From positions 2,491 through 66,490 of the forward strand of contig CAZVMH010000005.1 of the NCBI GenBank assembly GCA_964628585.1: a DNA stretch of 64,000 bases. Direction: 5' to 3'. The position numbers and the translations under genes are program-made. How positions within the stretch are numbered: the first letter of the stretch is position 1; each line of letters starts with the position of its first letter. Below the pieces are notes generated by a model that was not told the origin of the DNA, ran no database searches, and saw only the letters and a list, made by a program, of their open reading frames with translations. Origin of the DNA: an uncultured Candidatus Saccharibacteria bacterium. Its GTDB lineage: Bacteria; Patescibacteriota; UBA1384; XYA2-FULL-43-10; 1-14-0-10-43-13. This document shows, piece by piece, positions 3,033 to 42,346 of this stretch.

Positions 3033-3052
3033 AAATTTCCTTGTATACTTTT

Positions 3053-6481: not shown

Positions 6482-6515
6482 TTTGCCCTCCTGATATTAC
6501 CCAACTACCACCTCC

Positions 6516-6532
6516 GGGGTGGAAGTTTGTCG
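6516..6532 (-). other. Short GC hairpin (CCACC-TCCGG-GGTGG) in the 61-bp spacer between paralog C stop and paralog B RBS. Possible attenuator or RNA-processing site within a polycistronic surface-protein transcript.
   Basis: Inverted repeat ccacctccggggtgg read directly. No T-run follows on the minus strand, so it is not a classic terminator. Confidence 0.3.
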
Positions 6533-6542
6533 GTTAAATTAG

Positions 6543-9500: not shown

Positions 9501-9950
9501 AAGATTACTGGGGGCAGCAGGAGGGCCACTAAGAGTTGTGGCGTAAGCCAGATTAGAATAGAAGGAATAGACCATATCAGCATTGAAAGCTCTGACACGA
9601 TAGAAATACCTAGTGTAATTTGCTAAGCCAGTGTCTTGAAAAGCTGTTGTATTAGCGGGTTGGGTAAATGTTGTCCAGGGGCCGTAGCTAGATGTTCCCC
9701 TTGCAACCTCAAAACCGGCTTCATCATTAGCATTATCAGTCCAAGTGAGATTAATTTGGCTGGGAGAAACGGCTGTAGCCGTCAGACCAGATGGAGCAGA
9801 GGGCGCTTGGGCCCTGACAATTAAGATACCAATAAACAAGACCGCCAAAGCCACACCGACACCGATTAAAACGCCGGTGAGAGTAAACCTGCGTTTGGGT
9901 TTAGGCGGGGTTTGGGGTTTGCTGGCAGTATTATTTAGAGCACTAGCCAC
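6543..9950 (-). CDS. Giant cell-surface protein, paralog C (1135 aa). Domains: TM signal anchor, four or more Fn3 repeats, LVIVD-like beta-propeller, C-terminal DUF11-like module.
   Basis: N-terminus KPKRRFTLTGVLIGVGVALAVLFIGILIV is almost identical to paralog B. Fn3 motifs (QINLTWTDNANDEAGFEVARG; EINVSWTNNAPVVDWFIINRSGG; KIKLTWQDNSDNETRFELRQG). Shared conserved C-terminus. Confidence 0.85.
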   Translation of the reverse strand: MASALNNTASKPQTPPKPKRRFTLTGVLIGVGVALAVLFIGILIVRAQAPSAPSGLTATAVSPSQINLTWTDNANDEAGFEVARGTSSYGPWTTFTQPANTTAFQDTGLANYTRYFYRVRAFNADMVYSFYSNLAYATTLSGPPAAPSNLTATAVSQTEINVSWTNNAPVVDWFIINRSGGPYSDIKTWIPSPRTSYTETNLLPNTTYTFSICATNSYGETCSTETASATTFSPPPPDPPPAMPTNLEANIQEVTKIKLTWQDNSDNETRFELRQGEDPNTLNLLPALPANATTYTTNNLTENKTYYFNIKACNADGCSDSPTIAQATTNTFPPTNLTATAATDSLKINLAWQDHTTIETNYIVEKSPGDDQHFTILATLPANTVTYTDTTDLVADTTYYYKVRGKLNDTTFTDYTNTVFATPTYKYTGVNPGWIGKTPSMGSTKYTAMSNDGHYTYVGSSTGLQIVDISDPTNPLLTSRINVDTGKEIFDIKVDEKGYIYYGENKKLKIANINDPKRPIAVSELELTDYVNGLFYLDEKIYIANYSVGLRIVDVSNRSIPRLLDTTIDTPGQASSVAVLGDTAVVADGTEGVAIIDLKSAQHLSSIPITDTASIVRNVTIAENGRAYIPAGYAGLLEIDFSTPSIPILISTSLQRDYAIGVSTSGNRIYVANLSRANTHNGLQIFDVTQRNPDNSLKEIAFMLNAGNNYGGVSSFGGIVSVASGNLYGLAIFDTNDLTNTWAIAYIPTINIPSGKIVTSGNHLYTFSNSGIQDYLYIYDISDPKYPEQVGALKLTSPIALEITGNYVVVSDDKYIRLVDVSNPRIPTIISGIEMPDYVLDVSIKDNKIYAACYEAGLVIVDMNNVLSLKKLGSYNTPGQVFGVALNGTTAVIADGTAGITLLNVSNANALTWIKTIATTQTTHDVAVGANNYAYVAAFNQGTLIVNLTTNPFNASIVREVIPRDMAYSVFLQNNLVYIANYSWNFFNNGLQIIDISNPTMATEKAFLQSSFHAMAATANGRYAYITDEKYLVEVADLYYDYLKVEQTSSCGGTEGCTSANHGQEITYTLKITNPTPYTFTGNNNILSNEIPDGTTYVQGSVTGGGQYGSGKITWNLGQVNPNEEREVSFKVTVN

Positions 9951-19989: not shown

Positions 19990-21018
19990 TCAAAGAATTA
20001 ACATCGCGTCGCCGTAGGAGTAGAAACGATATTTTTTTGAGATTGCTTCAGCGTATGCTCTTTTAATATTTTTTTTGCCAGCGAAAGCTGAAACCAACAG
20101 CAAAAGACTTGATTTAGGCAGATGAAAATTTGTTATCAGCCCATCAATAACTTTAAATTCATAGCCCGGATAAATATAAATATTGGTTTGACCGATCAAG
20201 TCGTCAGTTGTAAGTTGTAAGTTGTAAGTTGAGAACAAATGTTCCAAAACTCTAGTCGTGGTTGTGCCAACGGCAATTACTCGTCCTCCGTTTTTCTTTG
20301 TCTGTAATATTTTTTCGACAGTTTCTTCTGGAACCTCGTAAAACTCTGAGTGGATTTTATGATCCTCAATTTCTTTTGTTTTAATTGATGACCAAGTCCC
20401 CATCCCAACATGCAAAGTCAGTTTGGCAAGGATTATTCCCTTGCGTTCGATCTTTTTTAATAGTCCTTTAGTAAAATGCAGGCCAGCTGTTGGAGCGGCG
20501 ACACTTCCAGTTTTATCAGCATATACAGTTTGATAATTTTTTATATCTGATGAAGTTTCTCTTTTGTCGATATATGGAGGAAGAGGAGTGTGGCCAATTT
20601 TTTCTATCGCTTTCCAAAAATTTTTTCCATCAATATTAAATTGTATGATAAATATTTCATTCTTTCTACCTAGAATCTTAGCGCTGATATTATTGCTAAA
20701 AATAATTGTCGAATTTAATTTTAAATTTTTCCCGACTACTTCCCAAGTGCCATCTTTCAACTGATGATTAAGAAGTGTTTCAATCTTTCCTCCTGTATCT
20801 TTTCTATGGCCAAAAAGACGAGCTGGAAAAACTTTTGAGTCATTTAGAACAAGTAGATCACCTTCTTTCAAGAAATCAACAACTTCATAAAAAGTATGAT
20901 GGATAAGTTTGCCACTTTTTTTGTCTAATACTAAAAGACGCGAATGATCTCTTGGATCCATTTGCGTTTTGGCGATTAGTATTTTTGGCAAAACATATTC
21001 GAAATCACTTAATTTCAT
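19990..21018 (-). CDS. queA: S-adenosylmethionine:tRNA ribosyltransferase-isomerase.
   Basis: MKLSDFEYVLPKILIAKTQMDPRDHSRLLVL...TAGLHFTKGLLKKIERKGI...GTTTTRVLE are hallmark QueA motifs. Confidence 0.93.
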   Translation of the reverse strand: MKLSDFEYVLPKILIAKTQMDPRDHSRLLVLDKKSGKLIHHTFYEVVDFLKEGDLLVLNDSKVFPARLFGHRKDTGGKIETLLNHQLKDGTWEVVGKNLKLNSTIIFSNNISAKILGRKNEIFIIQFNIDGKNFWKAIEKIGHTPLPPYIDKRETSSDIKNYQTVYADKTGSVAAPTAGLHFTKGLLKKIERKGIILAKLTLHVGMGTWSSIKTKEIEDHKIHSEFYEVPEETVEKILQTKKNGGRVIAVGTTTTRVLEHLFSTYNLQLTTDDLIGQTNIYIYPGYEFKVIDGLITNFHLPKSSLLLLVSAFAGKKNIKRAYAEAISKKYRFYSYGDAMLIL

Positions 21019-21908
21019 TTTAAATCGACTTCTTGACCTTCTTCTAGTCTTCCTTCTTCATTTTCTTGCTTCTCATCTGAAATTTTCGTGAAATAGATTC
21101 TATCAATATTATTTTTTTTGGTTTTATTATTTTTAGAATCCTGCTTTGTTATTACCCTGTTTTCAGAAATAATTTTTGTAGTCTTAATGACTGATTCTTT
21201 ACTCTTAATATTTTCTCCCTGATTTGATTCTACTTGCGGTGTAACAATTGTTTTATTCTGTTCTTTTTTGATTTTATCAATGTTTTTTAAAAGTAAATTA
21301 TCACATGAATCTTTTGAATAGCATTCCTCGCTTCCAAAATCTTCCAGTATCGTTGACTTAATGGTCTTATTATCTGGCTTGCTTCGTTTTGTGTAGGCTT
21401 CATGAAGATCTAAAATTTTTTTAGAAATTTCGTAAGGATGAGGAATATTTTTAAATGCAAAATTGGGTGTCTCAGCAGCAGTTTGGACATTAATATTACC
21501 ATAATGAAGAAGAGTAGGAAAAATTCCATCAACATGGGCGCTTACATCTTGAATCATACGCAAATTTAATTCGCTAATTTCTCTTTTGAAAAGACCATTT
21601 TGAACGATATCAACAATCCTCCGATCTGTAATAATGTAAACGTCTAAATAGAAATCAATAAAACCATTAATAAGCAATGCAAAAAGAAAGAGGACATATA
21701 TTGAACATGTCAAAATCGCAACATTCCCGACTAATTGAGTCATAAAATCTTGGTTGTTGATTGCATATGAAAAAAAGATTATCAAGGGAATTATTAGGAG
21801 GGTGGTTACAAACCAAAAAATTGCATAGGTAAACCAATGTCGTCGCAAGATAAGCAAAATTCTTTCATCTTTTTCCTGTGCTGGAAAAAGTCTTTTTTCA
21901 ATATTCAT
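21015..21908 (-). CDS. Membrane protein with a bacterial PH (bPH_2/YdbS-like) domain and a charged C-terminal tail.
   Basis: ILLILRRHWFTYAIFWFVTTLLIIPLIIFF then FIDFYLDVYIITDRRIVDIVQNGLFKREISELNLRMIQDV is a DUF304/bPH pattern. Lys/Glu-rich tail. Confidence 0.55.
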   Translation of the reverse strand: MNIEKRLFPAQEKDERILLILRRHWFTYAIFWFVTTLLIIPLIIFFSYAINNQDFMTQLVGNVAILTCSIYVLFLFALLINGFIDFYLDVYIITDRRIVDIVQNGLFKREISELNLRMIQDVSAHVDGIFPTLLHYGNINVQTAAETPNFAFKNIPHPYEISKKILDLHEAYTKRSKPDNKTIKSTILEDFGSEECYSKDSCDNLLLKNIDKIKKEQNKTIVTPQVESNQGENIKSKESVIKTTKIISENRVITKQDSKNNKTKKNNIDRIYFTKISDEKQENEEGRLEEGQEVDLK

Positions 21909-22114
21909 AAACTAAAATCCGAAGGCCAACTTCTTGTCGCGATTAAGACAAAAGTTACCGCAATTACAATAGCACTTAATACAATATATATAGCTATTAC
22001 TGGACGGGTTAAATCCCCCACGTAACCAAAACGATTTAGATGGTAAATAGCAGCCACACTAAAAATAATGAAGATGATTAATAAGATAAAGTAAATAAAC
22101 AACAAAGTTAACAT
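21905..22114 (-). CDS. Small two-TM membrane protein (69 aa).
   Basis: Hydrophobic helices LLFIYFILLIIFIIFSVAAIY and VIAIYIVLSAIVIAVTFVLIA. Overlapping start/stop with neighbours. Confidence 0.45.
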   Translation of the reverse strand: MLTLLFIYFILLIIFIIFSVAAIYHLNRFGYVGDLTRPVIAIYIVLSAIVIAVTFVLIATRSWPSDFSL

Positions 22115-22698
22115 TATTCCAATCTTCCTTCATCGGCCGATTCGTTGCAGCCACAATACTTAGGTATCATTATATCATGATTACGGGCATAATTTCTACC
22201 CTTCCAGTAACCTTTTCGAAAATCTTTATAAAATAAATTTATTTTATTTTGAGTTGCTAGTTCGAGCGCTTTGTCCCAAATTTCTTCATGATCTCTGTAG
22301 GGAGAACAGAGCATTGTTGTAGTAAAATATTTTAGTCGCAATTTTTTTGTTTGTCTGACTAAATTGTTGATTAATAAAGAGACACAAATTTGACAACGGT
22401 TCCTTCTGTATCTCTTTTTATCAGAGATATATTTTATCGAATGTTGATCTTGATACGGCATCAAAATTGAAAAAAAGTCTTGAATATCATAAGGAGGAAT
22501 AATAAGTTTAATCTCACTTGCTTCACAAAGTTTTTTTACATCGGAAAGCCTTCTTAGGTATTCCGCCCTGCCATGAACTTCTGGATGATAGAAGTAAGCA
22601 ATAATTTTAAAATTATTTTCTTCCAATATTGAAAAAACATTACTGGCGCAAGCAGCACAGCATACATGAACTAAAATTTTTCGGTGCGTAGCTACCAT
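22114..22698 (-). CDS. queH: Epoxyqueuosine reductase QueH (DUF208 family).
   Basis: ILVHVCCAACAS is the signature HxCCxxC cysteine cluster of QueH. Further Cys residues (RCQIC, CGC). Genomic context is next to queA. Confidence 0.75.
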   Translation of the reverse strand: MVATHRKILVHVCCAACASNVFSILEENNFKIIAYFYHPEVHGRAEYLRRLSDVKKLCEASEIKLIIPPYDIQDFFSILMPYQDQHSIKYISDKKRYRRNRCQICVSLLINNLVRQTKKLRLKYFTTTMLCSPYRDHEEIWDKALELATQNKINLFYKDFRKGYWKGRNYARNHDIMIPKYCGCNESADEGRLE

Positions 22699-22713
22699 TG
22701 AGTTATAAATTTA

Positions 22714-23736
22714 TTAAAATAATTTTTGTTTGTTGATATCTGACTTTATCTCCAAATGATTAGATGCGGCTATGGTTGCAATTCTTCCCTTTGGTGTACG
22801 ATCAATAAAACCCAGTTGCAACAGATACGGCTCAATTACATCCTCGACCGTATCTCGATCTTCTGAAATGGCAGCACAAATTGTATCGAGTCCGACCGGC
22901 CCGCCACTAAATTTGCCAATAATACAATTTAGATATTCCCTGTCATTTCTGTCTAACCCTAACTCATCAATATCAATTTTTTTTAGCGCCTCAGCTGCAA
23001 TGCGCTTGTCAACGCTACCCTTGTGTTTAACTTCAGCATAATCTCTAACTCGTTTTAATATACGGTTGGCAATTCTAGGAGTCTTTCTGCTCCTTTTAGC
23101 AATCTCTAAAATCCCATCTTCATCAATTTCTACTCTTAATATTTTGGCTGCCCTCCTAATAATCTCTGCCACCTCTTCTATTGTATAGAATTCGAGTCTA
23201 TGGACTGCACCAAATCGATCACGTAAAGGAGAAGAAAGGGAACCAATTTTGGTAGTAGCACCGACCAAAGTGAACCGAGGTAAGTTTAAACGCATAGTTT
23301 TAGCGGATGGGCCTTTGCCTAAAATCAAATCTATGGCATAATCCTCCATTGCAGGGTAGAGAACTTCTTCAATGTTTCGATTAAGTCTGTGTATCTCATC
23401 TATAAATAAAATATCGCCGTTCTTTAAGTTAGTCAGAATTGAGGCCAAATCTCCAGCTCTCTCGATGGCTGGTCCGGAGGTAACCTTTATCCCGACCCCG
23501 GTTTCACCAGCAATGATATGGGCAAGAGTTGTTTTTCCGAGACCTGGAGGCCCATAAAGCATGACATGTTCAATTGCCTCACCCCGCTTTTGAGCTGCCT
23601 CAATAAAAATTAAAAGATTTTCTTTGATTTGAGATTGTCCGACATAATCAGCAAAACGTTTAGGACGCAAAGTGTTTTCAAATTCCTCTTCAGAATTTAA
23701 CTCAAATTCTCCTTCAATATCAAATTCTTCATTCAT
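22714..23736 (-). CDS. ruvB: Holliday-junction branch-migration ATPase RuvB.
   Basis: [19 protein letters not shown]...[22 protein letters not shown]...[10 protein letters not shown]...RFG. Confidence 0.96.
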
Positions 23737-23794
23737 TATTGTTAAATGGTTAAGTGGTTGCTTGTTTTGTGGTAAACTTTATAAACTTTATGAA

Positions 23795-24346
23795 CTACTT
23801 AATGTTTTTCAGACACCAACGTATTTGCTCTTCGCTCTCTAATAATCCCTTTGGAATTCGACTTAACACTCGTGCTACTTCTACCTTTTTATACCCCAAA
23901 GAAAGAAGTGCGTCCATTATTTCATCGGATTGATCCATTTTTTCTAAAATACCTGAATCTTCTAAACCAGATAATTTTGATTTTAACTCAAGTATAATTT
24001 TGGCTGCTGCTTTTTTACCTATTCCTGAAATTGGTAGAAAGAAATCAACATTTCCAATAACAATGGCATTCTGAATTTCGCCTATACTTGCTGATGACAT
24101 AATATTAAGACCAGCTTTTGGACCGATTCCATTTACTGAGATAAGTTTTTCAAAAAGTATGAGTTCTTCATACTTTTCAAAACCGTATAGATCATGACAA
24201 TCTTCACGGATTACTTCATGAATATATAGTTCCTTCTCGCCACCATAATTCTTTGTGCAAAATATTTTATACCCAACTCCACCCGCTTCTAAAATAAGTG
24301 AGCTACCTCCCGATAAAATTATTTTGCCTTTTAGATATGCGATCAT
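23795..24346 (-). CDS. ruvA: Holliday-junction DNA helicase subunit RuvA.
   Basis: MIAYLKGKI...GVGYKIF...LISVNGIGPKAGLNIMS (HhH motifs). Confidence 0.9.
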   Translation of the reverse strand: MIAYLKGKIILSGGSSLILEAGGVGYKIFCTKNYGGEKELYIHEVIREDCHDLYGFEKYEELILFEKLISVNGIGPKAGLNIMSSASIGEIQNAIVIGNVDFFLPISGIGKKAAAKIILELKSKLSGLEDSGILEKMDQSDEIMDALLSLGYKKVEVARVLSRIPKGLLESEEQIRWCLKNIK

Positions 24347-25704
24347 TGCAAACTTTTTATTAGTTTGTCCAATTCTTCTTCTTTTTCATTTTTTAAAGAC
24401 TCAGACTTAGCTTCAAGATTAAGGCGTAAAAATTTTTCTCCAGTGTTAGAAGTCCGCATATTGAAGCGCCAATCAGTAAATTCTATAGATAGGATATCCG
24501 TTCTATCAATAATCCCTGATTTGTATTTTTCTTCTGCTACTTTGAGGATATTATCAGCATTTGGAGTTTTATAATTAATCTCTCCAGAAATAAAATATTT
24601 CCGACGAACTGGTTCGATAATTTTTGAGAGCTTTTTTGCCTCCTTTGAAACGATCTCAATAACCTGCAGAAGCGGGAGCATGCCACAATCAGCGTACCAA
24701 AATTCTCGGTAGTATGTATGACCGCTCGATTCCCCAGAAAAGATTGCATTCTCTTTTCGCATACGAGCTTTGATGAAGGAATGGCCAACTCTTTCCATGA
24801 CAGCAACACTACCAGCTTCCTTCGTTGCCTCAATTAGAGCCCAAGTATACCTCGGATCATAAACGATTTTTTGTCCAGGAAATTTCTTTAAGATATCGCT
24901 GATTAGAATTGAATTGATAAAATAGGAATCCACAAAAAGACCATTGTCGTCAACAAAGAAAACTCTGTCGGCGTCAGCATCCCACATTACACCAAAATCG
25001 GCCTTTTCTTTTTTGACCAAATCAATAGTCTCCGTACGATTTTCTGGCACAAAAGGATCTGGTCTCCCTTTTGGAAAAGTGCCGTCAGGCTCAGCATTTA
25101 TGGAAATTATTTCAAACGGAAGGCTTCCCATTTCTATAAGTTTTTTCAATATTCTTCCTTCAAAACCAAAGTTTGGGTTAGCAACAATTTTTAAAGATTT
25201 AATTGATTTTTTATCAATAAAGTTTAAAAGGTAATTACAGTAGTCAATTAGAATTTCTTTTATCTCAACTTTACCCTTATTATCAGAAACAATTTTTTTA
25301 TCTGATAGAACAAAATCTTTTATATCTTCTATCCCAGAAACTCCCGAAATAGGAATGACATTCTCACGGACTAATTTAAATCCGTGGTATTCAGAGCTAT
25401 CATGAGAAGCGGTTACTTGGATGCCTCCACCATAACCGTAGTTGCCAGTAGCAAAATAAATCATTTCTGTTGAAATTAAACCGATGTCAACAACATCTAT
25501 CCCTGCGTCTGTAAGTCCAGAAATCATTGATTTCTTCAACTCTTCCGAATGGGTTCTAACATCATGACCGATTACAATAGGTTTCTTGGGTTTCACTAGA
25601 TCAACATAACCTTGAGCGATTTTATAGGCAATCTCTTCATTGATATTATCGGGATAGATTCCTCGTATGTCGTACGCTTTAAAAATTGATGGATCGATTT
25701 TCAT
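24343..25704 (-). CDS. Alpha-D-phosphohexomutase (phosphomanno-/phosphoglucomutase, possibly archaeal-type phosphoglucosamine mutase).
   Basis: Active-site serine loop GGGIQVTASHDSSEYHGFK. Metal-binding MWDADADR. Sugar-binding GESSGH. Four-domain length (453 aa). Confidence 0.85.
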   Translation of the reverse strand: MKIDPSIFKAYDIRGIYPDNINEEIAYKIAQGYVDLVKPKKPIVIGHDVRTHSEELKKSMISGLTDAGIDVVDIGLISTEMIYFATGNYGYGGGIQVTASHDSSEYHGFKLVRENVIPISGVSGIEDIKDFVLSDKKIVSDNKGKVEIKEILIDYCNYLLNFIDKKSIKSLKIVANPNFGFEGRILKKLIEMGSLPFEIISINAEPDGTFPKGRPDPFVPENRTETIDLVKKEKADFGVMWDADADRVFFVDDNGLFVDSYFINSILISDILKKFPGQKIVYDPRYTWALIEATKEAGSVAVMERVGHSFIKARMRKENAIFSGESSGHTYYREFWYADCGMLPLLQVIEIVSKEAKKLSKIIEPVRRKYFISGEINYKTPNADNILKVAEEKYKSGIIDRTDILSIEFTDWRFNMRTSNTGEKFLRLNLEAKSESLKNEKEEELDKLIKSLQ

Positions 25705-25706
25705 AT

Positions 25707-26666
25707 TCAGACCTCATTAATATTAAGAATATCATCTACTGATTTTGAGGCAGCCATTAAATATTTTACAAATATATGATTTTTCAGGTCTTCAATTCTT
25801 TTTTCTTTATGTTTGGTATGCTCAAGCACAAAATCAAATGAATGTATTGTCAGCCTGATAATGCTACATCTAAAAAATTCTTTTTCTTCCTTTGTTTTTA
25901 GAAATACATTCAATTTTTCTTGCCAATTTGGGTTTTTCCATAAGTATAACCAAAGAAAAGTAAAATCGACCATATAATTATCGGCACAAAACCACTCCAA
26001 ATCAGAAAAACTTATTTGATCATCTGGAGTGACAATAATATTTGAAGGAGTAAGATCTCCGTCACAGCTACTTCGGAAGGAACTTTTAAAATAATTATTT
26101 GCTTTTGATTTATAATAATTTACAGGTGTTGAAAGAGAAATACCGAGATCATTTTCAATAGCTTTTAGATCATATTCTTCGATTTGCTCGTAAAATCTTT
26201 TTGGGATTGAATACAACCTGGCATCTTTAATTTGTCGTAATATTTTTAAATTGCTCACTATCCCGTCGATTATTTTTTTACTCTTAGGCAAAAGTTCCTG
26301 CTTGATAGGATTGTTATATAAGGGATCGTCCGGTTGGGTTTCTCCTCCTAGGGGTGTTCCTGAAATGTAATCCTTTAACATCCAAAAATATTGCCCTATT
26401 TCTCCACTTTTTACTACCCTTGCCATCGCAGTTTTCTTGTTGAATTTGCTTTCAAAATCCTGCGTTATTTTATCAATGAGAATTTCTTTTAGTAACCTGT
26501 CGACTCTCGCCTGATTTTTTTTAGTAGAAATTTTCAATATTGCTTTTTTATTAAGAAACTTTCCCTTGCTCACAATATAATTTTCAGTCTCACTGAATTT
26601 TAATACTTGATCTTCTTGGAAACCTATTTCTTCTATTATTCTTATGAGGTCTTCTTTAAAACTCAT
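25707..26666 (-). CDS. Aminoglycoside-phosphotransferase-fold (APH/choline-kinase-like) putative sugar kinase.
   Basis: Brenner-like catalytic motif CDGDLTPSNIIV (cf. HGDLHPGNIL) and downstream ISFSDLEW..ADNYMVD (DxD-like). No other family signal. Confidence 0.45.
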   Translation of the reverse strand: MSFKEDLIRIIEEIGFQEDQVLKFSETENYIVSKGKFLNKKAILKISTKKNQARVDRLLKEILIDKITQDFESKFNKKTAMARVVKSGEIGQYFWMLKDYISGTPLGGETQPDDPLYNNPIKQELLPKSKKIIDGIVSNLKILRQIKDARLYSIPKRFYEQIEEYDLKAIENDLGISLSTPVNYYKSKANNYFKSSFRSSCDGDLTPSNIIVTPDDQISFSDLEWFCADNYMVDFTFLWLYLWKNPNWQEKLNVFLKTKEEKEFFRCSIIRLTIHSFDFVLEHTKHKEKRIEDLKNHIFVKYLMAASKSVDDILNINEV

Positions 26667-26678
26667 TTTAGTCTGTCT

Positions 26679-27725
26679 TTAATGTTTTAATTGATTATAC
26701 AAATCTTCATATTGGTCAGTCATTTTTTCAATATTAAATCGTTTCTCGGCCGATTGTCTACAGAATGACCTCTTGATCTTTTCAATTTTTTCTGAAGATT
26801 TTACTAAGGCATTAATATCGCCCCTCTTAACCACGAAACCATTTTTACCATCTTTAATAATCTCTTTTACAGGTTCCACATCGTATGCGATAACAGGTGT
26901 ACCACAGGTAAGAGATTCGATCATTACTAAACCGAACGCTTCATCAATTTTTGAAGTGAAAAGAACGGCTTTTGCTTTACCGTAATATTTATTTTTTTCT
27001 TCTAACCCCAATTGACCAACAAATTGAATGTTTTTAGTTAAGTTAGGTTTAATTGTCTGTTCAAAAAACTTTGGGTCGCTTTTTGTTCCAGCAATTAGTA
27101 GTTTTTTGCCACTCTTTTGGGCAAACTTTATGGCATCACCTGCTCCCTTCTTGTCACACATACCCCCGATCCAAAGATAATAATCTTCAGAATGGTCAGA
27201 ATAATCAAAACTGTTTATTTCGATTCCATGATATATCACTTTTGACCTCTTCGGATTGGGCCAATGATGCAAAAAAGCATGTGATGGAAACACATAATAT
27301 GGAGAATCATATTTCCTGAATATCATTTTTATATCATCTGTGTCATAATCACTATATCCGTGCACTGTAACAACAACTGGCTTATCTATAAATTTGAGTA
27401 TTGGCAAAAAATAATAAAAAGAAAATAGACTGACATGAAACACATCGAACTCATCTTTTCTCAATAGTACCTGTGTTAATTCTTCTATAGTAAATAAAGA
27501 TATTTTTCTCTTAGAAAAATCTTTGAGGCTTTTTGAAAACAGATCATTTGGTTCGCAAATATTGACAACCTTGCCAGAAACTTTGCTTCCTGCGCAGGCG
27601 AACAAGGTAATGTCATGACCTCTTTTAGCCAAAGACTCTGAATAACCATAAGTCCAAGATTCCGTTCCAGCGGAAGAATTTATATTGATTGGCCTGCTAA
27701 TATCACCTATTATTGCGATCTTCAT
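26679..27725 (-). CDS. GT4-family glycosyltransferase (348 aa).
   Basis: C-terminal GT-B motif SKIDEAFGLVMIESLTCGTPVIAYDVEPVKEIIKDGKNGFVV (E-x7-E). Confidence 0.85.
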   Translation of the reverse strand: MKIAIIGDISRPININSSAGTESWTYGYSESLAKRGHDITLFACAGSKVSGKVVNICEPNDLFSKSLKDFSKRKISLFTIEELTQVLLRKDEFDVFHVSLFSFYYFLPILKFIDKPVVVTVHGYSDYDTDDIKMIFRKYDSPYYVFPSHAFLHHWPNPKRSKVIYHGIEINSFDYSDHSEDYYLWIGGMCDKKGAGDAIKFAQKSGKKLLIAGTKSDPKFFEQTIKPNLTKNIQFVGQLGLEEKNKYYGKAKAVLFTSKIDEAFGLVMIESLTCGTPVIAYDVEPVKEIIKDGKNGFVVKRGDINALVKSSEKIEKIKRSFCRQSAEKRFNIEKMTDQYEDLYNQLKH

Positions 27726-28908
27726 ATTTCCCTCGAATACTCTTACTAAATAAATCTATAAATTTTTGACCAATCTTGGGCCATTCAATTTGTCTTCCTA
27801 GCACCTTTGCATTTGCTGAATACTTTTTAATTAGATCCGGATTCTGAATTAATTTATTGATTGCCAATGAAATTGATTTTGAATCTTTAAATTTTACCAA
27901 TTCTCCAACTTTATAATTCTTCACTACATCCTGAGCAAAAACGTAAGGCGTAGAAACTATGCACTTGCCTGCTTCGATTGCATAGCTCAATGTGCCAGAA
28001 CTGGCCTGTTCCTTAGAATAATATGGAGTAATATATATGTTGGTATTGGCTAGGTATCTATAGATTGCGTCGAATTTTAAATAGTAAGGATAAAAAAAGA
28101 CGTTATTTTCTAATTTCAATTTTTTAGAGAGTTTTACTAGATAGTGCATATATTTCCTGGATTTTTTAGGATGAGTTTTACCTAAAATTGCATATTTTAT
28201 GCTTAATTTGGGATTGTTTTTTATGATTTCCGGTAAAGCCATTATCATATATTCTAACCCCTTCTTGGGGGTAATAAGACCAAAAGTAGAAATTACAAAA
28301 TCATTTTTTTTGAATCCTAAAGTCTCTTTCTTTTTTTGGTCTTTTTCTATTTGGACCGAAGAAACTCTTTCAGCACCATGTGGTACCACATAGGTCTTAT
28401 TTAAAGAATTTTTTACATTTTTTTCAAGATAAGACTTAGCCGTTTCCGTCATGACAGAGATACCATCAACATAAGCAAACATTTTGCCCGATAATTTGTT
28501 TCTACTTTTATATCTTTTTGCTCTGATTCTGACTGGTTCATCTAAATTAATCGAAACGGTATGGAGTGTAATTACAACCGGTTTCTTCAAATGTTTTAAA
28601 AGAAACAAGAGTTTGTTTCCATTAAAACCACCGTAAATTCCGAATTCATGTTGAACGGAAACGACATCACAATCTGAGTTGTTGATTAACTCTGCAGCTT
28701 TAAGATAGTCCCCATCATTGTTCTGTGAGATCGAGGCAATGACCTCTTTTGGATAATTATACTTGTCATCGTTCATAGCTATAACAGAAGCTCTGACGTT
28801 TGGATCAGCAGATTTTATTGCCTTAATTAAATTATTTGTATAAGTTGCAATCCCGCATTCTCTTGGAATATAACTTGATATAAAGATAATCTTGAGACCA
28901 GTACTCAT
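27703..28908 (-). CDS. GT4-like glycosyltransferase (401 aa), paralog of 28911-30119.
   Basis: N-terminal CGIATYT motif. C-terminal YYSKEQASSGTLSYAIEAGKCIVSTPY (variant of the EX7E region). Overlaps neighbours. Confidence 0.8.
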   Translation of the reverse strand: MSTGLKIIFISSYIPRECGIATYTNNLIKAIKSADPNVRASVIAMNDDKYNYPKEVIASISQNNDGDYLKAAELINNSDCDVVSVQHEFGIYGGFNGNKLLFLLKHLKKPVVITLHTVSINLDEPVRIRAKRYKSRNKLSGKMFAYVDGISVMTETAKSYLEKNVKNSLNKTYVVPHGAERVSSVQIEKDQKKKETLGFKKNDFVISTFGLITPKKGLEYMIMALPEIIKNNPKLSIKYAILGKTHPKKSRKYMHYLVKLSKKLKLENNVFFYPYYLKFDAIYRYLANTNIYITPYYSKEQASSGTLSYAIEAGKCIVSTPYVFAQDVVKNYKVGELVKFKDSKSISLAINKLIQNPDLIKKYSANAKVLGRQIEWPKIGQKFIDLFSKSIRGKYEDRNNR

Positions 28909-28910
28909 TA

Positions 28911-30119
28911 TTATTTTTCCTTATTACTTTCTTTTTTAGTTTTTTTTTGATCTTCTTTATAACATTCAAGAAACAGGTTCAGATAGTTTCTAGCGGTTTT
29001 TGACCAAATTTGTTGTCGAACATACTTATAAGATAAATTTTGCATTCTATGTCTGGCTTTTGGATGTTCAATTAAGAAATTAATTTCTTCAGCAATGGCA
29101 TGACTATTTGCCGGTGGTACCAACAGACCCCTATGATCGGCTAAAACCTCTTTGGCATAATCGAATGGAGTGGAAACACAGGCTCTTCCGCAAGCCATAG
29201 CATATGTAAGAGTACCAGAAGAAACCTGATCTAAGACCAGAAAAGGTGCGACAAAGACATTCGAGGCCATTAGGTAATTAAGCAGATCTGAATAACTTAC
29301 AAATTTATTGATGAATTTTACATTATCTGAAAGTTTTAGTTTTTTAACTCTGTCTTTTAGCCCCTGATAATATTCTGGATTTCTTTGCGGATGGTAACGA
29401 CCAATCAATAACAGCTTAGTGTTTGGATGCGCTTTAACAACATCTGCCATTGCTTCGATTAAGTATTCATAGCCTTTTTTTGGTCTCATTAAGCCAAAGG
29501 AAGAAATGATCGTGTCTTTTTTAGAGAATCCCATCATTTCTTTAAAAAATCCTGAGGAATATCTGGGCACATTTGGAGCACCATGCGGAATAACAATAAT
29601 TTTGTCAGGACTTATATTATATTTTTTGACTAGAATTTTTTTAGCAATATCGGCTAAAACAACAATACGGACGGATCTTTCACAAATCTCTCTAACAACT
29701 TCGAGATGATGAGGTGCCGGTTTTTTATAGACCATATGAAGAGTCGTAACAGCTGGTTTTTTTAAGGCGCGAAGAAAAATTAAAAAGTTTTTACCATCAT
29801 CTTGTCCCAAAGTTTCAGGGTTAACTTTGGCCCCATACAGCCCAAACTCATGTTGTATGTTTACTACCTGTGCATCACTTTTATTGATAAATTCAGCCGC
29901 TTTTTTATAGCCCTCATGATCTTTATCGTTGAAATGGAACTTTACAGATGAAGAATATTTGTAACCCTTATCGTTGTCTTCTACTGCCACAATAAAATCA
30001 TCCATGTCTGGGTTTTTTTCTTTCATCACTTTTCGTAGCGCAAATGCATAGGTGGCAATTCCACATGCTTTTGGCAAAAATGCGGTGAAATGAGCAATTT
30101 TGGTTATTTTATCTGCCAT
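28911..30119 (-). CDS. GT4-like glycosyltransferase (402 aa), paralog of 27703-28908.
   Basis: CGIATYAF N-terminal motif. LDQVSSGTLTYAMACGRACVSTPF. Same architecture as the upstream paralog. Confidence 0.8.
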   Translation of the reverse strand: MADKITKIAHFTAFLPKACGIATYAFALRKVMKEKNPDMDDFIVAVEDNDKGYKYSSSVKFHFNDKDHEGYKKAAEFINKSDAQVVNIQHEFGLYGAKVNPETLGQDDGKNFLIFLRALKKPAVTTLHMVYKKPAPHHLEVVREICERSVRIVVLADIAKKILVKKYNISPDKIIVIPHGAPNVPRYSSGFFKEMMGFSKKDTIISSFGLMRPKKGYEYLIEAMADVVKAHPNTKLLLIGRYHPQRNPEYYQGLKDRVKKLKLSDNVKFINKFVSYSDLLNYLMASNVFVAPFLVLDQVSSGTLTYAMACGRACVSTPFDYAKEVLADHRGLLVPPANSHAIAEEINFLIEHPKARHRMQNLSYKYVRQQIWSKTARNYLNLFLECYKEDQKKTKKESNKEK

Positions 30120-30121
30120 TT

Positions 30122-31129
30122 TTATCCTTTTTCACTCTTTCTTAAATACTCTGCCGCCTCTTCAGGCGACATAACATCAATAATTACTTCGCTTCCTAAT
30201 TCGAACCCGCCAAAATTTGAAACACGAGGAATTATCTCTAAATGCCAGTGAAATGACTCCGAATCTTGTTCTATAGTGGGCAGTGTATGAATATACAGAT
30301 TAAAAGGCGGATTTTCAAGTGTTTTGTCAAGTTTTCGAAGTGTTTCCATAAGACAATCAACAAAGTCCTGCATGCTTTCTTTTGAAATTTTTTGAAACTC
30401 ACTTTCATGGTGTTTGGGATAAATCCATGTTTCAAAAGGGAATCTAGCAGCGTAAAAAGTTGCCACTAAGAAGTTTTTGTTTTCATAAACTACTCTTACT
30501 TTTTCCTTTAATTCGTGCTGGACCATATCGCAAAAAACACAGTGACCATTAATACCATAATATCGGTTAGCTCCAGTCATCTCTTTTCCGACTGTATTGG
30601 CGATTACCCCTGAAGCAAAAATTTGGGCATGAGGGTGATTAATAGATGCTCCTGATTCAGCACCATGATTGTAAATTGGCATTATTGATGCAATATTTTC
30701 TTTTTTATGAATCGAGATATAACGATCTCTTATAACTTCAAAAAATTCAACGGCAATTTCATTTGTTATACAAGGCAGAGAAGTGTCATGATCTTTTAGA
30801 ACAACAACTTCATGTTTTCCAACGGATATCCTCTGGCGATAAAAACCTTTTTCTGGATAAAAACTTCGCAATGATGACTCATCGTCTGTGTCGACAAAAG
30901 CAGGATATTTATTTTCAATAACATAGACATTTTTTGTAGCAGACCCACGAATTTTTTCATTGGAGTTATACCCCTCTGAATTTATGCAGAATGGACACTT
31001 TTTTTTATCCGATACGGTCACGCTTTTAGGAATAACGAAATCTTGCGGACGTTTGGATCGCTCGGGAGCAATTACGACCCAATCACCAGTAATAATATTT
31101 TGTCTAAGTTGTGGCACGGTTCCCTCCAT
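30122..31129 (-). CDS. galT: GalT-family (HIT-superfamily) hexose-1-phosphate uridylyltransferase or related nucleotidyl-sugar phosphorylase.
   Basis: Zn-site CPFC near the N-terminus. Catalytic INHPHAQIF (HxHxQ) motif. Second half-domain with HWHLE. Confidence 0.75.
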   Translation of the reverse strand: MEGTVPQLRQNIITGDWVVIAPERSKRPQDFVIPKSVTVSDKKKCPFCINSEGYNSNEKIRGSATKNVYVIENKYPAFVDTDDESSLRSFYPEKGFYRQRISVGKHEVVVLKDHDTSLPCITNEIAVEFFEVIRDRYISIHKKENIASIMPIYNHGAESGASINHPHAQIFASGVIANTVGKEMTGANRYYGINGHCVFCDMVQHELKEKVRVVYENKNFLVATFYAARFPFETWIYPKHHESEFQKISKESMQDFVDCLMETLRKLDKTLENPPFNLYIHTLPTIEQDSESFHWHLEIIPRVSNFGGFELGSEVIIDVMSPEEAAEYLRKSEKG

Positions 31130-31139
31130 TTTCTTACTA

Positions 31140-31631
31140 TCAGTTGTTTGTTTTTACTGTCTGAGCATGACAGATCGCAATTGCCAAAGCATCTGCAGCA
31201 TCATCTGGCTTGGGACAGTTTTTCAGTTTGCAAGTGATGCGAACCATTTCCTGCATTTGAGCTTTGTCTGCCCGGCCATACCCAGTGATCGCTTGCTTCA
31301 CTTGCAACGGTGTATATTCCACAACCGCTAGATTGTGTTTCATAGCACAGACGATTGCTACCCCTCGCGCTTGAGCTACACTCATAACCGTCTTTTGATT
31401 TTTAAAGAAAAATAATTCCTCAACTGCCATACAATCGAGCTTCTCTCTCTCAATTATATCACATAAAGAACTATAAATATGGAACAAACGGGTGGGCAAA
31501 TTCTGCTTTGCTGGCGTTCTTATACAACCATATTTTTTAGGGATAATATTTGCCCCATATTTCTCAATGATTCCCCAACCAAGAATAGCTGTTCCAGGAT
31601 CAATGCCAAGAATTTTTAGATTATTTACCAT
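31140..31631 (-). CDS. ruvC: Crossover junction endodeoxyribonuclease RuvC.
   Basis: ILGIDPGTAILGWGII...MAVEELFF...DAADALAIAICH (catalytic D/E/D/D residues). Confidence 0.93.
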   Translation of the reverse strand: MVNNLKILGIDPGTAILGWGIIEKYGANIIPKKYGCIRTPAKQNLPTRLFHIYSSLCDIIEREKLDCMAVEELFFFKNQKTVMSVAQARGVAIVCAMKHNLAVVEYTPLQVKQAITGYGRADKAQMQEMVRITCKLKNCPKPDDAADALAIAICHAQTVKTNN

Positions 31632-31643
31632 ATAGAATAAATA

Positions 31644-32372
31644 TTAAATGCTTAGATTGGCATAAATGTTACTTACATCGTCTATTTCTTCCAATTTTTC
31701 GATGATTGAAATCAAAGAGGATTGCTTATCCTCCGGAAGTTCGATCAGAGTACTTGGCTGCTGAATAAATTCAGAAGATTCTATGATCACGCCAGCATCT
31801 TCTAGAGCCTTTCTGACTTGATGCATTGAATTGAAAGAGCAGGTAATTATATAGAGCCCATCATTTTTTTCAAAATCATCCGCTCCAGAATCAATTATAG
31901 CCAGCTCTAAATCATCTCCCTTAAATGAGTTTTTTGATTCGTCAATGATAATTTGGCCAACTTTTTTAAACAGATAAGAAACGCTTCCTGGACCAGCCAG
32001 TGATCCATTACATTTATTTAAAATTGCTTTGATATCTCCTGACGTTCGGTTTTTATTATCAGTTAAACATTCGATCAGTAAGGCGACACCATTTGGTCCA
32101 TATGCCTCGTAGGTAATTTCTTCAATGGCTGCTCCGCCACCCTCGCCTAAACCTTTTTTAATCGCTCTATCGATATTTTCCTTTGGCATTGAAACAGACT
32201 TGGCATTTTCGATTGCCATTCGAAGAGAGGGGTTCATGGTTGGATCGCCACTTTTGCCGTCTCGCGCTGCAATAGTGACCAATTTGGCCATTTTAGTAAA
32301 GACCTTGCCGCGCTTGGCATCTATAATTGCTTTTTTATGTTTAGTTGTAGCCCATTTGGAATGTCCGCTCAT
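31644..32372 (-). CDS. yebC: YebC/PmpR-family transcriptional regulator.
   Basis: MSGHSKWATTKHKKAIIDAKRGKVFTKMAKLVTIAAR is the canonical YebC N-terminus. Conserved synteny upstream of ruvC. Confidence 0.95.
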   Translation of the reverse strand: MSGHSKWATTKHKKAIIDAKRGKVFTKMAKLVTIAARDGKSGDPTMNPSLRMAIENAKSVSMPKENIDRAIKKGLGEGGGAAIEEITYEAYGPNGVALLIECLTDNKNRTSGDIKAILNKCNGSLAGPGSVSYLFKKVGQIIIDESKNSFKGDDLELAIIDSGADDFEKNDGLYIITCSFNSMHQVRKALEDAGVIIESSEFIQQPSTLIELPEDKQSSLISIIEKLEEIDDVSNIYANLSI

Positions 32373-42271: not shown

Positions 42272-42346
42272 TGGTGGGCCGCCTGGGACTCGAACCCAGA
42301 ACCAATGGCTTAAAAGGCCACTGCTCTACCATTGAGCTAACAGCCC
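42272..42346 (-). tRNA. tRNA-Lys (anticodon UUU), CCA encoded.
   Basis: Reverse complement GGGCTGTTAGCTCAATGGTAGAGCAGTGGCCTTTTAAGCCATTGGTTCTGGGTTCGAGTCCCAGGCGGCCCACCA. It folds as a cloverleaf with a 7-bp acceptor stem (two G-U), D-arm GCTC/GAGC, anticodon loop CTTTTAA, and T-arm CTGGG-TTCGAGT-CCCAG. Confidence 0.9.

Follow-up and report, generated by a model that had tools for sequence, protein, structure and literature searches.

Organization of the locus

The locus described here raises the question of why six sugar-handling genes stand between ruvC and ruvA, where the initial annotation had seen a cassette inserted into the yebC-ruvC...ruvA-ruvB operon. Genes of the window (the whole 64-kb stretch of DNA analyzed) were assigned to families using Pfam and NCBIfam, and the string from yebC to queH is composed as follows.

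31644..32372, minus strand: yebC (YebC/PmpR family), conserved upstream frame; NF001030, 300.7 bits versus a cutoff of 243
31140..31631, minus strand: ruvC, Holliday junction resolvase, conserved upstream frame; NF000711, 217 bits versus a cutoff of 163
30122..31129, minus strand: GalT-like HIT nucleotidyltransferase on the ADP-glucose phosphorylase branch, heading the interval as a conserved gene; both Pfam GalT half-domains
28911..30119, minus strand: GT4-A, atypical family 4 glycosyltransferase, cluster c8; PF00534, E 7e-28
27703..28908, minus strand: GT4-B, paralogue of GT4-A, cluster c8; 34% identity to GT4-A, E 2e-61
26679..27725, minus strand: GT4-C, canonical GT4 of the glucosylsucrose synthase/BGluT kind, cluster c3; TeGSS and BGluT matches
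25707..26666, minus strand: small-molecule kinase of the APH/choline-kinase fold, 319 aa, cluster c14; exhaustive HMMER family and model fold
24343..25704, minus strand: alpha-D-phosphohexomutase, PMM/PGM type; four PGM_PMM domains
23795..24346, minus strand: ruvA, conserved downstream frame; TIGR00084, 160 bits versus a cutoff of 85
22714..23736, minus strand: ruvB, conserved downstream frame; NF000868, 511 bits versus a cutoff of 282
22114-22698, minus strand: queH, after ruvB; PF02677, with phmmer matches in relatives

The coordinates and family calls previously given for the six genes all hold. The genes are tightly packed: junctions measure -23 to +12 bp, ruvC stands 10 bp from the GalT-like gene, and the PMM/PGM gene and ruvA share 4 bp. 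No transmembrane segment was found in the six products, all of which are soluble. Terminator-like sites occur in the string at chance frequency, and the whole unit appears to be co-transcribed with the flanking recombination genes. Long co-directional gene strings are a general trait of the window.

A split ruv operon throughout the lineage

In order to establish the usual arrangement, 80 metagenomic RuvC loci from unrelated bacteria were inspected. Among the 61 informative ones, ruvA directly follows ruvC in 42 (spacing of at most 300 bp), which bears out the earlier statement that these genes are normally contiguous. The relatives of the window genome are organized otherwise. Cargo separates ruvC from ruvA in all 36 complete loci, i.e. 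those containing both ends (35 relatives and the window); the interval holds 3-10 genes over 3.4-10.6 kb, mostly sugar genes, and is invariably opened by the GalT-like gene. The latter lies directly downstream of ruvC in 62 of the 79 Berkelbacteria-type species loci (median gap 76 bp), or 65 when three loci rescued from the raw ORF list are added, while in 10 loci ruvC is convergent and sugar genes lie in the 1.9-6.5 kb that separate it, on the downstream side, from the GalT-like gene. An upstream yebC accompanies ruvC in 72 related loci. None of the related species sampled lacks the split, even where the GalT-like protein is only 42-45% identical, and the linkage to recombination genes persists over the sublineages as ruvC...ruvA or ruvC...recG/comEA. 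One sister species (L088) displays the identical six-gene order and another (L089) a single additional GT2; in the relatives compared by synteny, the same genes were not encountered at a non-ruv site.

The interval genes have native codon usage and GC content, no repeats were found at their boundaries, neither an integrase nor a tRNA is present, and searches for phage and defence families returned nothing beyond generic GT and HIT matches. Since the split is universal in the lineage, codon usage is native and flanking repeats are absent, the interval is an old, native and ancestral trait of this Berkelbacteria-type lineage of Patescibacteria, and the term 'inserted' has to be abandoned.

Turnover of the cargo

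The content of the interval changes rapidly. As many as 34 distinct cargo orders were counted among the 36 complete loci; at 60-80% identity of the GalT-like protein, the Jaccard index of the cargo is 0.13-0.26 versus 0.67-0.72 for the three genes following ruvA, the flanks remaining syntenic. The cargo totals 204 genes, of which 192 run in the same direction and a single one encodes a polytopic membrane protein; flippase, polymerase and polyprenyl-phosphate transferase families are absent from the cargo clusters scanned. The family of GT4-C (c3) is the commonest cargo (22/36 loci), PMM and the kinase being present in 14 and 13 loci, respectively, and kinase-PMM and GT4-GT4 modules recur. Glycosyltransferases immediately follow the GalT-like gene in 33 of the 36 loci. 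The cargo of L015, L018 and L019 consists of three ATP-grasp genes without any glycosyltransferase, and the GalT-like gene is still there. This gene belongs to the conserved frame and not to the variable cargo. The yebC-ruvC-GalT-like...ruvA-ruvB-queH frame encloses a fixed, apparently co-transcribed slot, where genes of cytoplasmic carbohydrate metabolism come and go and change their order. In these tiny bacteria, the sugar slot at the ruv locus extends over the whole lineage, its cargo changing from species to species. Cargo as variable as this is met more often with surface glycans than with compatible solutes, a point against the pathway preferred below.

The GalT-like enzyme

The best solved relative of the GalT-like protein is Arabidopsis At5g18200 (PDB 1z84; E 4.6e-50, 174 bits, end-to-end alignment), far above the true GalTs PaGalT (96 bits) and EcGalT (81 bits); the TIGR00209 galT cutoff is nevertheless exceeded (111.3 vs 102.1 bits). 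Its HPHAQIF sequence fits the HxHxQ-phi-phi motif, the CPFC zinc site is retained and the catalytic His of At5g18200 aligns to H167. No Ap4A phosphorylase structure appears among the matches at E<=0.01. By sequence, the protein is best placed on the ADP-glucose phosphorylase branch. The two enzymes share the HxHxQ motif, the CxxC zinc site and the two-half-domain architecture of the class I GalT branch of the HIT superfamily (1z84, 2h39), whereas the window protein comes from a bacterium, is a remote relative by sequence and may differ in nucleotide and sugar specificity. Orthologues with at least 58% identity make up more than 120 protein clusters; they are named GalT in their sources.

At5g18200 works as an ADP-glucose phosphorylase and not as a GalT, and such enzymes can use NDP to activate sugar (PMC6329318). 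The conserved place of the GalT-like gene at the head of a locus rich in glycosyltransferases suggests a biosynthetic (NDP-sugar-forming) role beside a degradative one. The equilibrium of ADP-glucose phosphorylase reportedly favours phosphorolysis, as McCoy et al. are said to have found in 2006. The gene may also be a housekeeping one, not dedicated to the adjacent glycosyltransferases, because it is kept in the three loci devoid of them.

Glycosyltransferases, kinase and mutase

GT4-A and GT4-B both carry CGIATY and SSGTL, and GT4-A also QHEFG. Members of the family share the first two motifs, C19 and G20 without exception and S301 and G302 with few exceptions at most, in agreement with the earlier description of an atypical paralogous pair. 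A nearly invariant Tyr replaces the second Glu of EX7E in GT4-A, for which about 40 clusters of orthologues were found (59-77% identity). GT4-B retains all family-invariant residues; a single-sequence search returned no solved structure for it at E<=1e-3. Since both proteins lack EX7E, the usual mode of NDP-sugar use may not apply to them. GT4-C matches TeGSS (7fg9/8x3q, E 2.3e-39) and BGluT (5ze7, E 1.7e-27), soluble GT4s of about 350 aa, the same size as GT4-C, with a nearly full-length alignment and EX7E intact. The essential Arg179 of TeGSS is however a Gly in GT4-C, Gly188 occupying a site at which Arg predominates in the family (43 of 49 members). These nearest characterized relatives take small soluble acceptors, namely sucrose (TeGSS, PMC9909042) and tetrahydrobiopterin (BGluT, a glucosyltransferase with UDP-glucose as donor).

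The kinase alone gives no Pfam match. Its family, about 110 representative clusters recovered only by exhaustive HMMER, includes 41 of 76 sampled members matching PF01636 (APH); a model built with the alignment (pLDDT 96) fits the APH and choline-kinase folds, as had been proposed, the top Foldseek matches being LicA, APH(3'), AmiN and homoserine kinase II (TM 0.5-0.6). All APH catalytic residues are present, and K45 (the Lys of the consensus VLLKI motif), E61, D204, N209 and D222 are conserved. NCBIfam matches are generic, with no special likeness to any known sugar kinase. PMM immediately follows the gene in the majority of its 13 carrier loci. The mutase displays the motifs TASHD, DADADR, GESSGH and RTSNTGEKFLR, its best NCBIfam matches being CpsG PMM (390 bits) and PMM/PGM (344 bits), both under the equivalog cutoffs.

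Proposed pathway and alternatives

In the relatives, the GalT-like gene adjoins ADP-glucose-type GlgA (GT5), GlgM-like GT4, GH94 and GH130 phosphorylase and GpgS genes, and GH130 adjoins c8-type GT4s. GpgS (394 bits versus an NCBIfam cutoff of 262) is found in L007, L014 and L045, each time with an MpgP-family phosphatase; a pair of the GT4-A/B type lies directly downstream in L007, and two c3-type GT4s upstream in L014. Sugar phosphatases also occur in sister cargo. ADP-glucose is the donor favoured by most GpgS enzymes tested (PMC3736172). This company of GpgS with an MpgP-like phosphatase, GlgA, GH130 and GH94 points to cytoplasmic metabolism of hexose-1-phosphate and NDP-hexose yielding soluble glycosides, rather than to a lipid-linked surface polysaccharide.

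Our preferred explanation, which we hold at about even chances, is a lineage-wide variable-cargo sugar locus feeding a soluble small-glycoside pathway. Established within it are the gene identities, catalytic motifs, solubility and operon packing, together with a frame conserved throughout the lineage and a cargo that turns over rapidly. For the window, the direction and nucleotide of the GalT-like reaction, the kinase substrate, the GT4 donors and acceptors and the product are given as we infer them. The APH-fold kinase would phosphorylate a scavenged hexose or glycoside, and the phosphohexomutase would connect hexose-6-phosphate with hexose-1-phosphate. The GalT-like HIT enzyme, most like ADP-glucose phosphorylase, would interconvert hexose-1-phosphate and NDP-hexose via a covalent nucleotidyl-His167 intermediate, either from NDP and hexose-1-phosphate with release of phosphate or by exchange among sugar phosphates. 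The three retaining GT4s, themselves soluble, would then attach the sugar(s) to an acceptor that is likewise soluble and cytoplasmic, giving a small glycoside or oligosaccharide with alpha linkages that would serve for storage or as a compatible solute. The initial annotation's self-contained pathway survives as a possible activation-plus-transfer route, although 'self-contained' is too strong for a set whose nucleotidyltransferase is part of the frame and present beside GT-free ATP-grasp cargo. Its compatible solute gains indirect support from the bona fide GpgS and MpgP-like phosphatase of sister loci, but the window has neither: no GpgS, sucrose-phosphate synthase or similar acceptor-forming enzyme was found in the six-gene string or the rest of the 64 kb, nor was the MpgP-like phosphatase.

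It is unlikely that the locus is instead a cytoplasmic protein O-glycosylation island of the flagellin, SRRP or Sdg type, in which Ser/Thr residues of pilins or of the giant LVIVD/fn3 surface proteins would receive a glycan built stepwise by soluble GT4s ahead of export, cargo variety reflecting diversifying selection on a surface epitope. Variable cargo at a fixed site, as in surface-glycan loci, soluble glycosyltransferases without lipid-carrier machinery, a partial match of GT4-C to the adhesin O-glycosyltransferase SdgA (6.5e-16, far under cutoff) and three giant S/T-rich surface proteins within the window would suit it. No target, chaperone or accessory Sec gene is linked, however, sister cargo (GpgS with the MpgP-like phosphatase, GlgA, GH130, GH94 and sugar phosphatases) falls under the metabolism of small molecules or polysaccharides, the nearest characterized relatives of GT4-C take small soluble acceptors, and sequon counts in the giant proteins equal the prediction from composition (z -0.2 to 1.4), which also leaves unsupported the surface-protein glycan formerly suggested for N-x-S/T-rich giant proteins. 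We likewise doubt that there is no single pathway, the GalT-like and PMM/PGM genes being housekeeping enzymes, e.g. for a Leloir-like salvage of galactose by kinase, GalT and PGM or for the turnover of glycogen and ADP-glucose, that share a co-directional string with unrelated glycosyltransferases. Such strings are general in the window, PMM and the kinase are sporadic, and the GalT-like gene passes the galT cutoff, bears that name in its orthologues and is retained whatever the cargo; yet its score is far higher against At5g18200, neither GalE nor a GHMP galactokinase was found among the family-scanned cargo clusters, glycosyltransferases nearly always follow it and the kinase-PMM and GT4-GT4 modules recur.

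A link to recombination or DNA metabolism, for instance with dinucleoside polyphosphates or adenylated nucleic acid ends as substrates of the HIT enzyme, or with DNA glycosylated by the glycosyltransferases, is very improbable. It would explain the lasting linkage with ruvC, ruvA and recG, HIT enzymes do include Ap4A phosphorylases (bioRxiv 10.64898/2026.09.13.751320) and a phage GT structurally similar to 7fg9 is among DNA-hypermodification candidate genes (PMC13326640). The end-to-end match is nevertheless to ADP-glucose phosphorylase, the cargo is plainly devoted to carbohydrate metabolism (PMM, GH130, GH94, GlgA, GpgS) and no nucleobase-modifying enzyme was found among the scanned clusters. 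As for a mobile or horizontal cassette recently acquired by the window genome within a once contiguous ruvC-ruvA operon, the adjacency seen in most other bacteria and the differing cargo of close relatives would fit, but the lineage-wide split, native composition and unremarkable boundaries largely refute it and leave it a negligible chance.

Comparison with known systems

The Thermoanaerobacter GDP-mannose salvage cluster comprises GH130 phosphorylases, a Man-1-P guanylyltransferase and a GT4 alpha-mannosyltransferase (PMC4264767). It shares with the small-glycoside pathway preferred here the succession from sugar-1-phosphate to NDP-sugar to soluble GT4, and GH130 is found in sister loci; the window, in contrast, is devoid of GH130, pyrophosphorylase and ABC transporter genes, would use a HIT-type transferase as nucleotidyltransferase and is embedded in ruv genes. 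The glucosylglycerate and mannosylglucosylglycerate pathways rely on GpgS, GpgP/MpgP and the GT4 MggA (PMC3736172, PMC3240985); they resemble the three GpgS-bearing sister loci, whereas the window lacks GpgS and the phosphatase, and GT4-A/B may not be homologues of MggA. O-antigen and capsule loci situated between housekeeping genes similarly combine conserved flanks with a glycosyltransferase content changing fast between related species, but here Wzx/Wzy, an ABC exporter and an initiating polyprenyl-phosphate transferase are absent, nearly all products are soluble and the flanks are recombination genes.

Gene organization of the split ruv region

The region under study consists of one tight string of co-directional genes, with the following features in the order of transcription:

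22114-32372, minus strand: string of 11 co-directional genes
yebC
ruvC
GalT-like HIT enzyme
GT4-A, glycosyltransferase
GT4-B, glycosyltransferase
GT4-C, glycosyltransferase
319-aa protein, APH-like kinase
phosphohexomutase (PMM/PGM)
ruvA
ruvB
queH

YebC, RuvC, RuvA and RuvB all exceed the curated cutoffs of Pfam and NCBIfam. The layout given in the initial annotation, with six genes lodged between ruvC and ruvA at 24343-31129, was recovered, and the families it had named for these six genes were assigned again from Pfam and NCBIfam. Junctions within the string measure -23 to +12 bp, including a 4-bp overlap of the mutase gene with ruvA, and the widest gap is the 58 bp from ruvA to ruvB. Terminator-like sites in the string are no more frequent than in shuffled sequences and every one of them lies inside a gene; upstream of ruvA, a candidate promoter-like sequence (24509-24480) came out of the promoter scan. 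None of the six cassette proteins displays a transmembrane segment. Downstream, the order ruvA-ruvB-queH-(69-aa ORF)-bPH_2 protein-queA (19990-24346, minus strand) is kept in relatives. The joining of queuosine genes to ruvAB is reminiscent of Bacillus but, unlike in Bacillus, the enzyme found here is QueH.

The GalT-like enzyme

The GalT-like protein (335 aa) combines the motif, the two half-domains and the structural zinc site of class I GalT-type HIT enzymes. The half-domains were located by Pfam at residues 5-173 (PF01087) and 189-318 (PF02744). The HPHAQIF core of its NHPHAQIFAS segment fits HxHxQ-phi-phi, the motif of the GalT-type HIT branch (bioRxiv 10.64898/2026.09.13.751320), and H165, P166, H167 and Q169 are invariant among 32 orthologues. 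H167 is aligned to the nucleophilic His186 of At5g18200, the Arabidopsis ADP-glucose phosphorylase (1z84, and 2h39, in which His186 is mutated); the zinc site C45-P-F-C48, also invariant, is aligned to the CPFC of the same enzyme. At5g18200 is by far the best relative of solved structure (E 4.6e-50, 174 bits, residues 2-331), as compared to 96 bits for the Pyrobaculum GalT (PaGalT) and 81 bits for the E. coli GalT (EcGalT), and no Ap4A phosphorylase was found among the solved-structure matches at E<=0.01. The protein also lies above the TIGR00209 galT cutoff (111.3 vs 102.1 bits). By these scores, At5g18200 is closer to the protein than either the true GalTs or the Ap4A phosphorylases. At5g18200 works as an ADP-glucose phosphorylase and not as a GalT, and enzymes of this kind are able to activate a sugar using NDP (PMC6329318). 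The resemblance suggests a putative ADP-glucose phosphorylase-like enzyme, which may convert ADP-glucose and phosphate into glucose-1-phosphate and ADP and may be devoid of GalT activity.

The three glycosyltransferases

GT4-A, GT4-B and GT4-C each match PF00534, PF13692 and PF13439 and share the two-domain layout of GT4 enzymes (retaining, GT-B), a Glyco_transf_4 N-domain followed by a Glycos_transf_1 C-domain. GT4-A and GT4-B are paralogues with 34% identity. In their family, C19-G20 (CGIATY), H128, P178-H179-G180, K215 and S301 are invariant and H90-E91 (QHEFG) nearly so. The canonical EX7E motif is absent from both GT4-A (DQVSSGTLTYAMA) and GT4-B (EQASSGTLSYAIE): a nearly invariant Tyr306 replaces its second Glu, at a spacing three residues longer. 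The best solved profile matches of the pair are sucrose-phosphate synthase (6kih), PimB', MshA and PimA, with E-values from 1e-20 to 1e-14.

GT4-C follows the canonical GT4 pattern, its EX7E being intact (E262 and E270 invariant in 49 members). It is clearly homologous to the glucosylsucrose synthase TeGSS (E 2.3e-39) and related to BGluT, a UDP-glucose:tetrahydrobiopterin glucosyltransferase (E 1.7e-27). The catalytic residues of TeGSS are Tyr18 and Arg179 (PMC9909042). In GT4-C, Gly188 occupies the position of Arg179, which is essential in TeGSS, and Tyr18 falls outside of the local alignment. An Arg is found at the position equivalent to Gly188 in 43 of the 49 relatives. The sister species (L088) has the Arg; the close relative L089 shares the Gly together with an adjacent Glu-to-Lys change (GGxCDKKG). 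Gly188 and the neighbouring Glu-to-Lys may represent a compensated active-site change.

Proteins of about 730 aa in which the GT4-A/B type is extended at its C-terminus by a fused (alpha/alpha)6 GH88-like domain were observed in six loci of related genomes (L011, L012:13088-15280, L013, L021, L048 and L054), five of which carry a GH130 phosphorylase gene directly before the fusion. Outside CPR, the GT4-A/B type adjoins GH130 and a protein of about 350 aa without a Pfam match (L090, L091).

The APH-like kinase and the phosphohexomutase

The 319-aa protein has no Pfam match and a word-index homology search returned only the protein itself; an exhaustive HMMER search was needed in order to find its family, made of 142 representative clusters. 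N209, D222 and D234 are invariant in this family, D204 and E61 are present at 90% or more, and K45, the Lys of a consensus VLLKI motif, is conserved. With the consensus GDLxPxN ... D-F/L-E-W, the catalytic set of APH and protein kinases is complete: the D-x-x-x-x-N loop, the metal Asp (DFE/DLE), the ATP-binding Lys and the helix-C Glu. PF01636 is matched by 41 of 76 kinase-family members, and the NCBIfam families matched by these 76 include no known sugar kinase and no specific name. AlphaFold produced a model with a pLDDT of 42 from the single sequence and of 96 from the alignment. The latter resembles LicA choline kinase, APH(3'), amicoumacin kinase and type II homoserine kinase (TM 0.5-0.6), with a Foldseek probability of 1.0 for APH(3') and LicA; maltokinase, NahK, MTR kinase and AmgK are all missing from its best 50 Foldseek matches. 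The label of sugar kinase is thus derived from gene context only.

The mutase contains the four phosphohexomutase domains (PF02878, PF02879, PF02880, PF00408) and the signature loops TASHD (phosphoserine), DADADR (metal), GESSGH (sugar) and RTSNTGEKFLR (phosphate-binding). It scores below every NCBIfam equivalog cutoff and is of the PMM/PGM type by family.

Conservation of the split operon

The GalT-like alignment was scanned against one genome per GTDB species, yielding 80 loci, of which 79 are of the Berkelbacteria/Patescibacteria type. In the loci of the relatives, we called the ORFs ourselves, labelled them with phmmer and clustered them. Many MAGs entitled 'uncultured Candidatus Saccharibacteria' (L009-L085) carry a Berkelbacteria-type locus, and this name was probably given generically by a pipeline.

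In 62 loci, the GalT-like gene is immediately preceded by a same-strand ruvC, with a median gap of 76 bp, and the raw ORF list adds two more (L032, L085). In L009, an overlong GalT-like ORF (530 aa) covers the place expected for ruvC, which is likely to be there. Ten loci of a more distant sublineage have a convergent ruvC 1.9-6.5 kb downstream, with sugar genes in between, and only two loci lack a nearby ruvC. Variable genes, referred to as cargo, separate the GalT-like gene from ruvA in 36/36 complete loci, counting the window, and amount to 3-10 genes or 3.4-10.6 kb; ruvC adjoins ruvA in 0 of these 36. In one sublineage, recG-comEA takes the place of ruvA as the downstream flank. The block formed by the GalT-like gene and its cargo is inverted relative to ruvC-yebC in nine loci forming a sublineage (L053, L059, L060, L062, L069, L073, L075, L078 and L086), where the other flank consists of GH94, recG and a comEA-like gene, not ruvA. 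In the outgroup, obtained by scanning metagenome contigs with the RuvC alignment, 42 of the 61 informative loci have ruvA no more than 300 bp behind ruvC, and a GalT-like gene is present only at the closest match (70% identity). Since cargo occurs in all complete loci and ruvC and ruvA are mostly adjacent in the outgroup, the split operon is a lineage trait.

The initial annotation had described a cassette inserted into the ruv operon. A recent horizontal insertion into these DNA-repair genes is the wrong reading, corrected by the lineage comparison, and can be considered as essentially refuted: besides the split being found in every complete locus, the six genes stay inside the range of the other window genes in both GC content and codon usage, and the cassette borders display no flanking repeats, integrase or tRNA, the repeat search having returned AT-rich chance matches only. 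Searches with PADLOC and PHROGs detected neither a defence nor a phage signal. No relative was encountered with ruvC and ruvA adjacent and the six genes elsewhere, which is the arrangement that had been expected to speak against the initial description of the locus.

Variable content of the cargo

The cargo follows 34 different orders among the 36 complete loci. At 60-80% GalT-like identity, its Jaccard index is 0.13-0.26, as compared to 0.67-0.72 for the three genes downstream of ruvA. Exactly the six genes of the window are found in the sister species L088, whose GT4-A is 77% identical, and L089 (GalT-like 89% identical) has one extra GT2.

Table. Cargo families, named by Pfam and NCBIfam, with locus counts over the 36 complete loci
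GT4 of the GT4-C type: 22 loci
GT2 of about 255 aa: 15 loci
PMM/PGM: 14 loci
APH-like kinase: 13 loci
GT4-A/B type: 10 loci
GlgM/BshA-like GT4: 8 loci
Histidine phosphatases
GH130, beta-1,2-mannobiose phosphorylase-like
GpgS (394 bits vs cutoff 262), adjoining an MpgP-family phosphatase
GpgS-like GT2-HAD fusions
GT28-type transferases
Other APH kinases
ATP-grasp enzymes
GT5 glycogen synthase
GH94: neighbouring sublineage

Throughout these 36 loci, 192 of 204 cargo genes are co-directional and a single one of the 204 proteins is a polytopic membrane protein. The cargo clusters scanned contain no Pfam family of initiating polyprenyl-phosphate transferases, flippases or transporters, or polymerases, and the features of a lipid-carrier-dependent surface polysaccharide locus (Wzx/Wzy or ABC type) are absent. 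Three loci (L015, L018, L019) have no glycosyltransferase and still keep the GalT-like gene, which is therefore part of the conserved frame and not of the variable cargo. The interval in these three, the smallest observed, holds three ATP-grasp genes, of which one runs in the opposite direction. In L007, L014 and L045, GpgS forms the C-terminal half of a 730-aa protein whose N-terminal 400 residues are without family assignment, followed by the MpgP-family HAD phosphatase. The whole window outside the cassette contains no GpgS, GH130, GH94, GlgA, phosphatase or extra glycosyltransferase.

Proposed pathway and alternative explanations

The most likely theme of the locus across the lineage is a cytoplasmic chemistry of hexose-1-phosphates and NDP-hexoses. 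Its components are GH130/GH94 phosphorylases, which release sugar-1-phosphate, the mutase, kinases, the HIT-type nucleotidyl transferase and soluble transferases, the closest characterised relatives of which use small, soluble acceptors. A Thermoanaerobacter cluster of GH130, Man-1-P guanylyltransferase and GT4 follows the same logic (PMC4264767). Glucosylglycerate enzymes, present in the loci of some species, mostly favour ADP-glucose as donor (PMC3736172).

From this theme, a four-step pathway can be proposed for the window. The enzyme classes and their motifs, the solubility of the proteins, the packing of the genes and the comparative pattern were observed directly; the substrates, nucleotide, direction and product we infer as follows. 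The kinase would produce a hexose phosphate, to be converted by the mutase into hexose-1-phosphate. The GalT-like enzyme would then form an NDP-hexose via a nucleotidyl-His167 intermediate, and three GT4 steps would lead to a soluble alpha-glycoside or a short oligosaccharide. Weak points are that no acceptor-forming enzyme was found in the window, that GT4-A/B and GT4-C are unusual in their active-site features and that such a variable cargo would be more in keeping with a surface-exposed glycan than with an osmolyte.

A cytoplasmic O-glycosylation of surface proteins is rather unlikely. The giant LVIVD/fn3/DUF11 proteins of the window, initially proposed as sequon-rich glycan carriers, contain N-x-S/T at the counts expected from composition, and the claim of enrichment is rejected. 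These are three tandem paralogues of 934, 1142 and 1135 aa (228-9950, minus strand), each of which has a membrane anchor at the N-terminus, a DUF11 at the C-terminus, and LVIVD repeats as well as fn3 domains. It is equally doubtful that the genes form no single pathway and serve housekeeping purposes: the GalT-like gene is indeed conserved whatever the cargo, but modules recur and glycosyltransferases behind it are near-universal. A functional tie to recombination is highly improbable, the persistent linkage to recombination genes being the sole point in its favour.

A broader reading of the sugar-phosphate theme, offered tentatively as one of low probability, places an NTP-sparing nucleotide-sugar hub in front of a diversifying slot for cytoplasmic glycan genes, running from ruvC and the GalT-like gene to ruvA or recG across Berkelbacteria. 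The invariant GalT-like enzyme may convert NDP and hexose-1-phosphate into NDP-hexose with no NTP spent; the hexose-1-phosphate may come from GH130/GH94 phosphorolysis or from the kinase-mutase pair, and the NDP-hexose may be used by whichever transferase set each species possesses. The GT4 pair lacking EX7E may bring a new donor or acceptor specificity to GT4.

Significance and additional observations

Berkelbacteria, like other Patescibacteria, have very small genomes and presumably live attached to hosts; to our knowledge, almost nothing is known of their sugar economy and glycans. Lineage- or host-specific glycosides can be sought concretely at a site that is kept by every species and filled in each with a different set of soluble glycosyltransferases, phosphorylases and kinases, and the conserved ADP-glucose-phosphorylase-like enzyme suggests a low-cost synthesis of nucleotide sugars in ATP-poor fermenters. 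Every enzyme family involved is already known, as are glycan loci of fixed site and variable content. The new elements are the site inside a ruv/recG string of recombination genes, the conservation, throughout the lineage, of a lead gene resembling ADP-glucose phosphorylase, the all-soluble composition of the locus and the GT4 pair devoid of EX7E. A full-text search of one literature collection on Berkelbacteria glycosyltransferases and ADP-glucose phosphorylase returned no description of the present locus.

Elsewhere in the window, an ORF of 718 aa at 39716-41872 (plus strand) contains a hydrophobic segment at its N-terminus and is unmatched in Pfam. Four tRNA genes were also observed, at 51376-51452, 51877-51953 (minus), 55397-55472 (plus) and 42272-42346 (minus), comprising three tRNA-Met within 4 kb and one tRNA-Lys.
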